Origin: Promethearchaeota archaeon Loki_b32
GTDB taxonomy: Archaea > Asgardarchaeota > Lokiarchaeia > Sigyniarchaeales > SOKP01
DNA: 64,000 nucleotides
Direction: 5' to 3'
Assembly (NCBI GenBank): GCA_005223125.1
Contig: NJBH01000007.1
Location: 85,097 to 149,096, forward strand
The position numbers and the translations under genes were made by a program. This document shows, piece after piece, positions 29,310-40,602 of this stretch (positions are counted from its first letter, which is position 1; each line of letters begins with the position of its first letter). Under the pieces are notes generated by a model. That model was not told where the DNA came from, ran no database searches, and worked only from the letters and a program-made list of their open reading frames with translations.

Positions 29310-30248
29310 TTATATTCTAATTTCGAATTTTAAATGATCAATTATTTCTTTGTATCGATTCCTGATAGTTGCTTCAGTAACTCCCGCAGCCATTGATATT
29401 TCTTTTTGTGTACGCCGTTCTCCTTCTTGTATAGCAGCAACATATAATGCTGCACCTGCTAATCCTGTTGGTGCTTTCCCTGCAGTGATACGATATTTTT
29501 TTGCAAGTTTTAAAATTGAAGCCGCCCTATTTTGAGTTTTTCCAGAGAGTTTTAATTCGGCGCAAAACCGTGGTATGAAATTTATTGGAGAGGAAACTTG
29601 AATATTTAATTTAAGCTCTCTTAGAATTAACCTGTAGCAGCGAGCGACTTTCTTCTTATCTACTGAAGCAAATTCTATGAAATCATCTAAAGTCTTAGGA
29701 ATACTATTCAATCTACAAGATAAATAAATTGATGCAATCAGCATTGCTTCAATAGATCTACCTCTAATTAAATTCTTATTAGCCATTTTTCTATAAATGT
29801 GTGCAGCTGATTCTTTCAAATCTTTTGATAGGTTTAGTTGAGAAGAAAATCTATCCAATTCATTCATTGCATAGGCTAAATTTCTATCAATCGACTTATT
29901 TGTACGCGTCCTTACATGCCATTTTCTTAACCGATAAACTTCCGCCTTCATTTTAGGGCTTATTGTCTTTCCAAACGCGTCTTTATTCTTCCAACCGATC
30001 ATAGTACTTAAACCCTTATCATGAAGAGTTAGGGTTGTAGGGGCTCCTACTCGCACTTTTTTCTTTGCCTCTTCTGATGTAAATGCTCGCCATTCGGGCC
30101 CAGAATCTATAAGTCTTTGACTTAAAACTAATCCACATATGCTACAAATTATCTCACCACGAGATTCATCTGAGATTAAATTTTTGTTACCACATTCTGG
30201 ACATAAATTGAAATTTTTTTGAGAGAATGAAAGATCCAATAATGCCAA
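29310..30248 (-). CDS. tfb: Transcription initiation factor TFB
   Basis: Zinc ribbon CPECG...CSICG, 'IDSGPEWRAF', 'HDKGLST', two cyclin repeats, 'VTEATIRNRYKE'. Confidence 0.97.
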   Translation of the reverse strand: MALLDLSFSQKNFNLCPECGNKNLISDESRGEIICSICGLVLSQRLIDSGPEWRAFTSEEAKKKVRVGAPTTLTLHDKGLSTMIGWKNKDAFGKTISPKMKAEVYRLRKWHVRTRTNKSIDRNLAYAMNELDRFSSQLNLSKDLKESAAHIYRKMANKNLIRGRSIEAMLIASIYLSCRLNSIPKTLDDFIEFASVDKKKVARCYRLILRELKLNIQVSSPINFIPRFCAELKLSGKTQNRAASILKLAKKYRITAGKAPTGLAGAALYVAAIQEGERRTQKEISMAAGVTEATIRNRYKEIIDHLKFEIRI

Positions 30249-30992: not shown

Positions 30993-31628
30993 ATGCCATT
31001 AGACACACAAACCGTTGTTAATAATTTAATGCAAAACGATCCCCACATTATCGCCGCAGCTGTGCTTAAAGGCAAAGAAATCATTTATACAACAGATAAT
31101 TGGGATATTAGTGCAGATGTTGACAGAGTAGTATCAAGTTGGACTGGACAAAATGCCCAGTTTATCATGGTTTCTGGTGTAAAATATTCTGTACTGCAAA
31201 TTGGAGCTGAACGATTAGTGGCTATGTCTTATAAAGGTGAGGGATCTATAGTAGCAGCGAAAGACGATGAGCATAAATTAATTACTTATTTGGATCCCGA
31301 TGGATATGGCATTGGCGCTGCAATGGAGGTTCAAAGAGCTTTAGGGGATTTGAGTACCAAAACATCTTATTTAGATTCAAATATTCAATTAGGTCAAGCG
31401 GGAGCTCAAGTGGGGGGTGCGGTATCTGCAGGAGTTGCACCTTCAGCTGGTGCAGGTCCAAGTGTAGATCCTCAACTTAAAGGTGAGATTCAATCTTTTC
31501 TGGATTGGATTAAAGATACTGAGGGTTTATCAGGTTATATTAATTACTATCTTCAGCAAAATAATGCTCAAATAATATCTGAGTTGTCAAAAATTTATAA
31601 TGAACTGAGACAAATTTTTGGTGTCTAA
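30993..31628 (+). CDS. Asgard profilin with Gly/Ala linker and extra C-terminal helical domain
   Basis: Residues 1-125 carry Loki-profilin motifs 'TTDNWDIS', 'SGVKYSVL', 'ERLVA...GEG', 'LITYLDP'. Confidence 0.8.
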   Translation: MPLDTQTVVNNLMQNDPHIIAAAVLKGKEIIYTTDNWDISADVDRVVSSWTGQNAQFIMVSGVKYSVLQIGAERLVAMSYKGEGSIVAAKDDEHKLITYLDPDGYGIGAAMEVQRALGDLSTKTSYLDSNIQLGQAGAQVGGAVSAGVAPSAGAGPSVDPQLKGEIQSFLDWIKDTEGLSGYINYYLQQNNAQIISELSKIYNELRQIFGV

Positions 31629-33062: not shown

Positions 33063-33224
33063 TGCAGGGAGTGGGATTCGAACCCACGAAGAGCTATCTC
33101 ACCGGATATCTCATTAATTATTACGTTAATCAACGGCTAACATAATAATCTGATCTTGAGTTCGGTTATTGAAAATCAATTTCCAATAAAGTCCGGCACC
33201 GTTGACCAACTTGGTTATCCCTGC
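33063..33224 (-). tRNA. tRNA-Leu(CAA) with two introns (32/33: 33160-33190; 37/38: 33108-33154) flanking a 5-nt exon
   Basis: GCAGGGA/UCCCUGC acceptor, long variable arm, A73; the spliced anticodon arm reads CCGGA-CUCAAGA-UCCGG. Confidence 0.92.
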
Positions 33225-38877: not shown

Positions 38878-40602
38878 GTGATTGAAGTGAAAACAGAAGT
38901 TTATATTAATAAGATCATTGAAGATACTGGTTTAACGCGAAAAGAAATTCAAAACTTAGTTGGAGATAAGAAAAATGAATTAAAAGGTTTAATATCTGAC
39001 GAAGGTGCTTTATTTATTATAGCAAAAGAATTAGGAGTTGATATAAAAAGTGAAAATAAAGAACTTTTAAAAGATATTGAAATATCTATTACTGATATTA
39101 CTCAAAATATGAAAAATTTGACTTTATTTGGTAGGATCAAAGAAATCTATAATACTAATAACTTTAAAAAAAATGATGGAACAAATGGATTTGTTGGTTC
39201 TTTTCTGTTGCAGGATAGTACTGGAGATGCTCGGATTGTACTTTGGGATGATCAAGTAAAGATTTTTAATGAACCTAATTTTGAAAACAATGAACTTGTT
39301 AAAATTATTAATGGTAATGCAAAAAAGGGAAGATATGGAGATATCGAGATACATGTGGGAAGATACGGAAAGGTTATATTGTCTCCTGACGATGTAGACT
39401 ATAAGAAATATCCCAAAATTTCATTTAAATCGATTAATATAAATGATATTAATTTAAATCTAAAATCGATCTCGTTAGAAGGAAAAATAATTCAAATATC
39501 CCCAATAACGGAATTTATCAAAAAAGATGGTGGATCTGGAAGAGTAAAATCTTTAACATTATTAGACTCTACAGGATCAATAAGAATTACATTTTGGAAT
39601 GAAGATACAAAAAAATTAAAAACATTAGAAGTCAATGATGTCATATCAATTACTAATTTAAATCCTCGATTGAGCACTTTGGATAATAGAACTATTGATC
39701 TGACAGCAAATAAAAACACAATTATGACAAAGAAAAAAATTGAGCTCGATATTAAAGGAGAATTTATAAAAGACATAAAAAGTCTTCAGAAAAATAAAGG
39801 AGTTGTTTCCTTTGAAGGAATTATAACTTCAGTTGATAATTTAAAAACAATATCCTTAAAATCTGGTGAAGACGTTTCTTTATTAGGATTAATAGTAAGT
39901 GATGATACCGATGGTATTCGAATCACATTATGGAGGGATAATGCAGAAGAATATTCAAAATTATTAAATGCAGGACATGGATTATCGTTAAAGAATGTAC
40001 TAGTAAAATACAGTAATTTTTCCAATAGAAATGAAATCTCTTTAATTAAGGAGTCAATACTCGAGTTAAAAGACCTAGAAATTAAAAATCTTAAGAGTAT
40101 TAATTTCACTAAACAAGAGAATGTTGCAAGTTTTTCTGGTAATTATATCAAAATCGAAAAAATTAAAACATCAGGTCCCATCGAAATAAAAGGATTTATT
40201 GCAAAAGATCTTAATAATATAACTATTTATGAAGCATGCAATAACTGTTATAAGAAAGTTGAAAATTGCACATGTGGGAAAGGTGATAATACTGAATTTA
40301 GGATGATTCTTAATCTTATAATTGATGACGGAACTGGAACTATTAGAACTACATTTATAGGAAACCAAGCAGAGAAATTAATAGGAATAGAAACTGCTAA
40401 AGTAGTACAACTAAAAGAAACCCCAGAATTTGAGAAATTTTTAGAAAAGAAATCATCCGAGTTTTTAGGGAAAGATATTGTTATCAAAGGTAGAGCTAAA
40501 TTCAGTGATTTTTCAGAACAATTTGAGATATCTGTATATGATTTCAAAGATATTAATATTAATGATGAATTAGAACGAGTAATGAACAAGATTGAAATCT
40601 AA
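38878..40602 (+). CDS. Replication protein A large subunit (multi OB-fold, RPA1-like)
   Basis: Four 'DxTG/DDTD...IR.TLW/FW' OB repeats; the last carries a zinc finger 'YEACNNCYKKV..C.CG'. Confidence 0.9.
   Translation: MIEVKTEVYINKIIEDTGLTRKEIQNLVGDKKNELKGLISDEGALFIIAKELGVDIKSENKELLKDIEISITDITQNMKNLTLFGRIKEIYNTNNFKKNDGTNGFVGSFLLQDSTGDARIVLWDDQVKIFNEPNFENNELVKIINGNAKKGRYGDIEIHVGRYGKVILSPDDVDYKKYPKISFKSININDINLNLKSISLEGKIIQISPITEFIKKDGGSGRVKSLTLLDSTGSIRITFWNEDTKKLKTLEVNDVISITNLNPRLSTLDNRTIDLTANKNTIMTKKKIELDIKGEFIKDIKSLQKNKGVVSFEGIITSVDNLKTISLKSGEDVSLLGLIVSDDTDGIRITLWRDNAEEYSKLLNAGHGLSLKNVLVKYSNFSNRNEISLIKESILELKDLEIKNLKSINFTKQENVASFSGNYIKIEKIKTSGPIEIKGFIAKDLNNITIYEACNNCYKKVENCTCGKGDNTEFRMILNLIIDDGTGTIRTTFIGNQAEKLIGIETAKVVQLKETPEFEKFLEKKSSEFLGKDIVIKGRAKFSDFSEQFEISVYDFKDININDELERVMNKIEI

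Follow-up and report, generated by a model that had tools for sequence, protein, structure and literature searches.

tRNA genes with several introns are common in Thermoproteales and in Asgard archaea. In Methanothermobacter thermautotrophicus, tRNA-Pro(GGG) is said to carry introns at positions 32/33 and 37/38, on either side of a 5-nt anticodon exon. The endonuclease of this organism is homotetrameric. A pattern scan for such a precedent in methanogen tRNA-Pro genes gave chance matches only. Archaeal tRNAs with nested, multiple BHB motifs (Sugahara 2007; Tocchini-Valentini 2009), as far as they are outlined in PMC3978253 and PMC3728597, share with the gene described below several short introns spliced by proteins, mutually exclusive motifs and an (alpha-beta)2 endonuclease. 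In Cyanidioschyzon merolae, it is the 37/38 intron that is removed last (PMC3728597, PMC3978253), and the alternative intermediate was not detected (PMC3728597). A recent description of heavily interrupted Asgard tRNAs (bioRxiv 10.64898/2026.10.13.758758) is also close to our case: these genes have at least two introns, non-canonical sites, relaxed motifs with 3 of 4 pairs, failures of annotation and a history of repeated gain and loss. As in our gene, an intron segment complementary to its own tRNA is found in the pre-tRNA-Trp intron, which holds a box C/D guide (PMC4090602), and in Pyrococcus methylation at C34 of tRNA-Leu(CAA) is guided by sR47 (PMC3413156).

The gene studied here belongs to a Lokiarchaeia (Asgard) archaeon and lies on the minus strand, from 33224 to 33063 (162 nt), of a window, i.e. 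the whole stretch of 64,000 nucleotides that was analysed. The assignment to Lokiarchaeia/Promethearchaeota agrees with the names in the 90% cluster to which the neighbouring ProC belongs. The segment 33063-33224 matches the tRNA family RF00005 of Rfam with 43.6 bits (E 6e-07); ARAGORN without its intron mode found no tRNA in the window. Joining the three exons listed below gives an 84-nt tRNA-Leu(CAA) with G37, a long variable arm and A73.

33191..33224, minus strand: exon 1, tRNA positions 1-32, 34 nt, ending in CCGGAC; near-invariant across the family
33193..33196, minus strand: CCGG (27-30), exon side of the central helix of intron 1 and 5' strand of the anticodon stem (from sequence)
33160..33190, minus strand: intron 1, position 32/33, 31 nt; precisely absent in L024, L028, L041, L050, L051, L030, L053 and L076
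33162..33165, minus strand: CCGA, intron side of the central helix of intron 1, 3 of 4 pairs
33155..33159, minus strand: exon 2, UCAAG (U33 C34 A35 A36 G37), anticodon CAA; invariant in 31 aligned genes
33152..33161, minus strand: ACUCAAGAUC, the micro-exon with its intron flanks, which rebuilds in the precursor the 10-nt target of the D guide of an sR47-like RNA, with C34 at N+5
33108..33154, minus strand: intron 2, canonical position 37/38, 47 nt; a 14-bp AU-rich hairpin with the loop CCGUUGA in this genome
33110..33113, minus strand: UGAG, intron side of the central helix of intron 2, pairing with CUCA; UGAG or UGGG in 90 of 92 genes, as counted with a parser that favoured such ends
33063..33107, minus strand: exon 3 (38-73), 45 nt; CCA is not encoded and a short U run follows

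The first-pass annotation had read the locus in this way, with an exon 1 ending in CCGGAC, a 31-nt intron with a UUAUUG/CAAUAA stem and two AC^U bulges, the anticodon CAA on a 5-nt micro-exon, and a 47-nt second intron with a CUCA/UGAG helix. All these features are borne out by the sequence, and the anticodon also by relatives that lack intron 1 and read CAA directly. That the gene is the tRNA-Leu(CAA) of this genome, with introns at 32/33 and 37/38 around UCAAG, is thus virtually certain. The parse is not a product of chance, since the exons are almost invariant while the introns vary, and since eight relatives have GGAC|UCAAG joined without intron 1. Contigs from two independent sediment studies are identical to the gene across both introns. 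RNA contigs from two runs have no bearing on expression or splicing: in one run they came from the neighbouring gene only, and in the other none was found. Upstream of the gene lie a DUF2116 gene and a UMP-kinase-like gene, and downstream an uncharacterized convergent ORF, in an order that is kept in the family. Elsewhere in the window, the first 100 residues of an ORF at 30993-31628 (plus strand) weakly resemble profilin (E 7e-4, below the Pfam cut-off) and are followed by a C-terminal extension, and the minus-strand gene at 29310-30248 was recognized by eye, from a zinc ribbon and cyclin-like repeats, as a candidate transcription factor B.

Comparison was made with 92 Leu(CAA) genes parsed from Asgard genomes. 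Both introns are present in 53 of them, all within the family of this genome; intron 2 alone, with the natural empty site GGAC|UCAAG, is found in five genes of the family and three of the sister family, and four other, more distant Asgard families also have a 37/38 intron in Leu(CAA). The first letter of intron 1 is U, A or C in relatives and its last letters are AC, AU or AA; because of these variable ends, the intron must sit at 32/33 and a shift to 31/32 or 33/34 is excluded. Sliding of either intron boundary was likewise ruled out by the intron ends of orthologs. A tree of the flanking proteins places at least two precise losses of intron 1 inside the set of genes with both introns, one in L024 and one in L028 with L041. 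Other changes were seen as well. In the orthologs L010, L011, L014, L025, L026, L027, L035, L064, L065 and L067, the T-loop contains a third insertion, about 30 nt long, which was gained or lost recently, since several carriers are the nearest relatives of this genome on the tree. In L057 and L062, intron 2 is only 27 nt long and has CCGUUGA fused to the UGAG helix strand, a shortening that was possibly due to deletion between two UGAU repeats. L058 and L071 have the same flanking genes around a Leu(CAA) gene with no anticodon-loop intron, a different anticodon stem (AUGGA) and extra sequence inserted into the variable arm or the D-loop, which may reflect gene replacement. In other Asgard classes (L081-L083, L103-L111), Leu(CAA) has a single 37/38 intron with motifs such as UGGCUAGAU, GCCAGAC or GGCUUGAC.

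The two introns are presented for cleavage in different ways. Intron 2 has the features of an archaeal BHB (a 4-bp central helix, two 3-nt bulges and at least one flanking helix): CUCA pairs with UGAG, the bulges are AG^A and AU^A, and the 5-bp anticodon stem serves as outer helix; the inner helix is here only 1 bp long (hBH type). Intron 1 falls outside the canonical class, which requires four central pairs. It belongs to the relaxed one, with three central pairs, a 3-nt AC^U bulge and a 10-bp inner helix, a class so often matched by chance that the proof of intron 1 rests on the empty sites in relatives. The inner hairpin begins with UUAUUG/CAAUAA, and the 3' end of the intron, CCGAAC, is a near copy of exon positions 27-32. 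In the central helix CCGG faces CCGA, with a C27.A mismatch, so that 3 of 4 pairs form here; all four form in 40 of 51 orthologs. Selection on the intron-1 helix is indicated by relatives with the exon stem CUGG, where the intron partner is CUAG, CUGG or CCAG, and by both-sided changes in five of the six inner-helix pairs of the family alignment. The genome encodes two EndA subunits and an RtcB ligase. The catalytic subunit has the alpha subunit of Aeropyrum pernix as best PDB match (E 2e-35), with Y125, H133 and K164 in register, as well as the crenarchaeal loop residues K44 and R46; loop residues of this type permit cutting of relaxed bulge-helix-loop introns (PMC3241643). The second subunit is without the catalytic His and is structural. 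Judging from these genes, the precursor most likely goes through two rounds of splicing, with cleavage by a crenarchaeal-type (alpha-beta)2 endonuclease and ligation by RtcB.

Both motifs use the CCGG at 27-30, as the first-pass annotation had pointed out, and they are mutually exclusive; the incomplete central helix of intron 1 in this gene had escaped it. It had also concluded from this sharing that the 32/33 intron leaves first. Sharing as such gives no direction; that order is nevertheless the likelier one on the other grounds discussed below. As far as sequence can tell, the layout, the anticodon, the enzyme genes and the mutual exclusion of the motifs may be regarded as established. The explanation that, on balance, we favour for the whole is a precursor that switches between two folds, one of them aided by an element of intron 2, and that loses intron 1 and then intron 2. 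In the first fold, the intron-2 element would pair with G15-G24 of the D-arm and hold the 5' half open, while CCGG (27-30) would find its partner in the end of intron 1 and not in exon 3, so that the relaxed bulge-helix-loop site at 32/33 would be presented. This fold would be complete about 100 nt into transcription, with exon 3 not yet made. Once intron 1 is out, the RNA would refold into a cloverleaf with the 4-bp CUCA/UGAG motif, and intron 2 would be excised. Cutting intron 2 first would be possible, with intron 1 then probably stuck behind a closed anticodon stem, as a slow or dead-end product.

The part of this scheme that we put forward most tentatively is the contribution of the element: a segment of 7-12 nt in the 37/38 intron might pair with the D-arm of its own tRNA during transcription, keep the anticodon stem open and so make the 32/33 intron leave first, which we regard as possible without deeming it probable. 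Its two partners are as follows.

33125..33136, minus strand: conserved element CCGUUGAUUAAC in the middle of intron 2, a 12-bp antisense (2 G.U) to G15-G24 of the same tRNA
33199..33210, minus strand: D-loop and 3' D-stem strand G15-G24, GUUGGUCAACGG, the predicted partner of the element

The element, CCGUUGA(UUAAC), is conserved in the family. An independent alignment of 31 genes has GUUGA invariant and the flanks variable, the two C's persist in 92-94% of 52 introns, and even the 27-nt introns of L057 and L062 still have CCGUUGA. In this gene, the duplex with the D-arm reaches -19.1 kcal/mol, against a mean of -8.5 for shuffled sequences, and it beats the shuffles at p<=0.05 in 52 of 54 family genes, which share one origin and are not independent observations. 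Controls with the variable arm, the T-arm or intron 1 almost never reach p<=0.05. In the alignment, 94% of the cells of the 12-bp helix pair, G18 and G19 doing so mostly through G.U. Both-sided change was found once only in this helix; covariation is nearly absent because the core of the D-arm hardly varies, and a test on independent pairs, underpowered, gave a median p of 0.5. The distal part of the element tends to follow the D-loop variant (GUU with AAC, GCCU with GC). Folding makes the duplex compatible with the intron-1 motif and incompatible with that of intron 2; for this gene, the best fold presenting intron 1 contains it, and so does the best fold of a nascent RNA of 100-105 nt. When the element is scrambled, the intron-2 fold gains ground in 46 of 49 genes; with a scrambled control segment this happens in 12 of 49. 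In this gene the effect is slight, the 14-bp hairpin of the intron acting as a competitor. From such models, a role of the element in the splicing of intron 1, through D-arm pairing, might be entertained as a serious possibility, still somewhat short of an even case. In L010 and L011 the element has become UUGGUUGA, which has lost the CC and pairs best with the other strand of the D-stem (U8-A14), at the margin of significance when compared with shuffles (p 0.05-0.08); both genes retain intron 1. An antisense rule for the whole phylum finds no support, for outside the family p<=0.05 is reached in only 2/21, 2/6, 0/3, 0/2 and 0/2 genes. The element also matches an rRNA-like region over 8-9 nt, a likeness that chance could explain.

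Retention of the element in genes that have no intron 1, namely five of the family (L024, L028, L041, L050, L051) and L030 of the sister family, is not explained by a helper role for intron 1. It agrees with another reading, which we consider possible although not the expected one: the element would serve a different purpose, as a protein site, as the partner of an RNA in trans or as a brake on early folding of the L-shape, and it may descend from an older guide-docking tag, its match to the D-arm being secondary. The exposure of the element in a 7-nt hairpin loop in this gene and the prevalence of G.U pairs at G18 and G19 are in line with this. Furthermore, the UGGCUAGAU motif of Leu(CAA) introns in other classes is the exact complement of the D' guide of L144, from a related family, and the matching intron of L081, from another Asgard family, holds it. 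However, the match to the D-arm extends over 12 bp with a distal part that tends to track the D-loop variant, and no partner in trans with UCAACGG beside an anticodon guide was found among the matches listed for 135 family genomes.

With regard to order, the last C of intron 1 is able to stand in for C32, since the intron ends in a near copy of 27-32, and the CUCA/UGAG helix of intron 2 can therefore form while intron 1 is still there. In the full precursor of this gene, with relaxed motifs, the computed cost is 1.8 kcal/mol for presenting intron 1 and 1.5 kcal/mol for intron 2, and with stricter motifs (one outer pair required) 5.3 and 3.9 kcal/mol, respectively, the latter with the mimic pair, all of these being nearest-neighbour energies that ignore tRNA tertiary structure and enzyme binding. 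Because the helix and bulges of intron 2 form in the full precursor at near-equal cost, the gene is not strictly nested: in the folding models, the last motif does not have to await removal of the other intron. These near-equal costs would suit a precursor that samples both folds and of which EndA cuts whichever is offered, enzyme binding paying for the refolding of the intermediate and the element barely affecting the order. Such indifference to order appears rather unlikely to us. It gains some credit from the presence of the guide target ACUCAAGAUC in all forms, and from the end of intron 1, which can pair with exon 3 at five of five positions in 38 of 51 genes and at four of five here. But this mimicry of the anticodon stem follows from CCGG being palindromic, and selection of the intron-1 end for it finds no support: the mimic has no covariation above shuffles and becomes weaker when the stem is CUGG, the intron-1 end then tracking the intron-1 helix (CUAG, CCAG) and not exon 3. 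Above all, after removal of intron 2 the intron-1 motif is costlier in every one of the 51 orthologs, and reaches 5.2 kcal/mol in this gene. Together with the lower cost of the intron-1 motif, compared with that of intron 2, in the full precursors of 43 of 51 orthologs, and with the transcription of every part of the intron-1 fold ahead of exon 3, this favours excision at 32/33 first. The same order is made likelier by the intron-2 motif being the lowest-energy fold once intron 1 is removed and by the lack of any intron-1-only gene in a pattern search of 161 genomes, a count limited by the pattern and by the small number of events, and, by analogy, by the late removal of the 37/38 intron in C. 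merolae. The predicted bias is weak in this gene and strong in relatives such as L047 and L023. From these models and comparisons, removal of the 32/33 intron first is probably the main productive route.

A much less credible use of the element would be as a docking tag for the D' arm of an sR47-like box C/D guide that targets C34, and we regard it as very unlikely. Such an RNA does exist in the genome (L155:1441-1545, corresponding to G000:C22 at about 39838-39942, plus strand), as do fibrillarin and Nop5; it is intergenic, has a long terminal stem and occurs in 21 family genomes, where it was found by a model built from seven distant copies, strict patterns having missed the family copies. 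Its D guide pairs over 10 bp with the micro-exon, with C34 at N+5. Pairing with ACUCAAGAUC is equal in the precursor, the intermediate and the mature tRNA, since the sequence flanking the exon is repeated at the ends of the introns; the D guide also pairs over the anticodon loop of Leu(UAA). The D' guide reads CUGACCC(A) in each of the 21 copies examined from the family and does not pair with intron 2 (family median -0.9 kcal/mol). It pairs instead with an intron of tRNA-Met (-16.2 kcal/mol) and one of Leu(UAA) (-12.4 kcal/mol), and the element is thus not a tag for this RNA. The corresponding segments are AUGGGUCAGA in the 37/38 intron of tRNA-Met (G000:C56:3912-4049) and AUGGGUCA in the D-arm intron of Leu(UAA) (C15:14857-15001), both genes having two insertions. 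Cm34 is itself uncertain in this genome, since the C and D boxes of the sR47-like RNA are degenerate. As for intron 2 acting as a C/D guide (e.g. for Gm18), box spacing rules this out; a variable stretch follows the element, and CUGA does not occur here, nor is it conserved at guide distance.

The remaining reading, that a single 78-nt intron is removed to make an ochre suppressor with the anticodon UUA, was announced by the first-pass annotation as the error of any single-intron parse, and ARAGORN in intron mode indeed commits it, with a call of tRNA-Stop(tta), and the sequence allows a cryptic helix with 3 of its 4 pairs, but we give it practically no likelihood, since no other Leu(CAA) gene was found in the genome, where UUG is used 10,648 times, and since UAA is the main stop codon (72% of long ORFs end with it), and also in view of a would-be anticodon that varies among relatives (UUU in 29, CUU in 15 and UUA in 2 of 51) and would be followed by U at position 37, of a cryptic motif that costs 5.5 kcal/mol here (median 8.6) and of relatives without intron 1 that read CAA directly. 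The other Leu tRNA genes of the genome are Leu(CAG), two Leu(UAG) and Leu(UAA). In many of its other tRNAs ARAGORN mis-parses insertions that lie in the D-arm or the T-loop, for instance at C57:25989-26170 (182 nt).

For annotation, the practical lesson is that single-intron tools will list a stop suppressor that does not exist and will miss Leu(CAA). If the pairing with the D-arm is real, the intron would owe its retention to its influence on how its host folds and in which order it is spliced, which bears on the persistence of archaeal tRNA introns; it would then represent a device, encoded in RNA, that sets the order of protein-catalysed tRNA splicing, and archaeal tRNA introns would have a function beyond the guiding of methylation. 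Natural variants exist that have a shorter intron 2, no intron 1 or a third intron.

Set against tRNA-Pro(GGG) of M. thermautotrophicus, the gene has the same layout in another isotype and another lineage. The study of heavily interrupted Asgard tRNAs (bioRxiv 10.64898/2026.10.13.758758) is centred on Jordi-, Freyr- and Atabeyarchaeia and cites Valentin-Alvarado 2024; a text search of it returned nothing on splice order or on this gene. The case of C. merolae (PMC3728597) differs in having a eukaryotic enzyme and motifs that fold independently, with no overlap. In contrast to the pre-tRNA-Trp intron (PMC4090602), intron 2 lacks a D box spaced from the element as in a guide. A guide for C34 is found here as in Pyrococcus (PMC3413156), encoded by a separate gene and without pairing to the element. 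In the nested archaeal tRNAs, as represented in PMC3978253 and PMC3728597, the motif of the last intron exists only after the others have been removed, whereas here the intron-2 helix can form before intron 1 leaves; any order must therefore come from a bias in folding. No helper pairing between an intron and the D-arm is described in the portions of this literature on nested multi-intron tRNAs that we drew on (PMC3978253, PMC3728597). The type of gene is thus known, and it is the conserved complementarity of an intron to the D-arm of its own tRNA that looks new.
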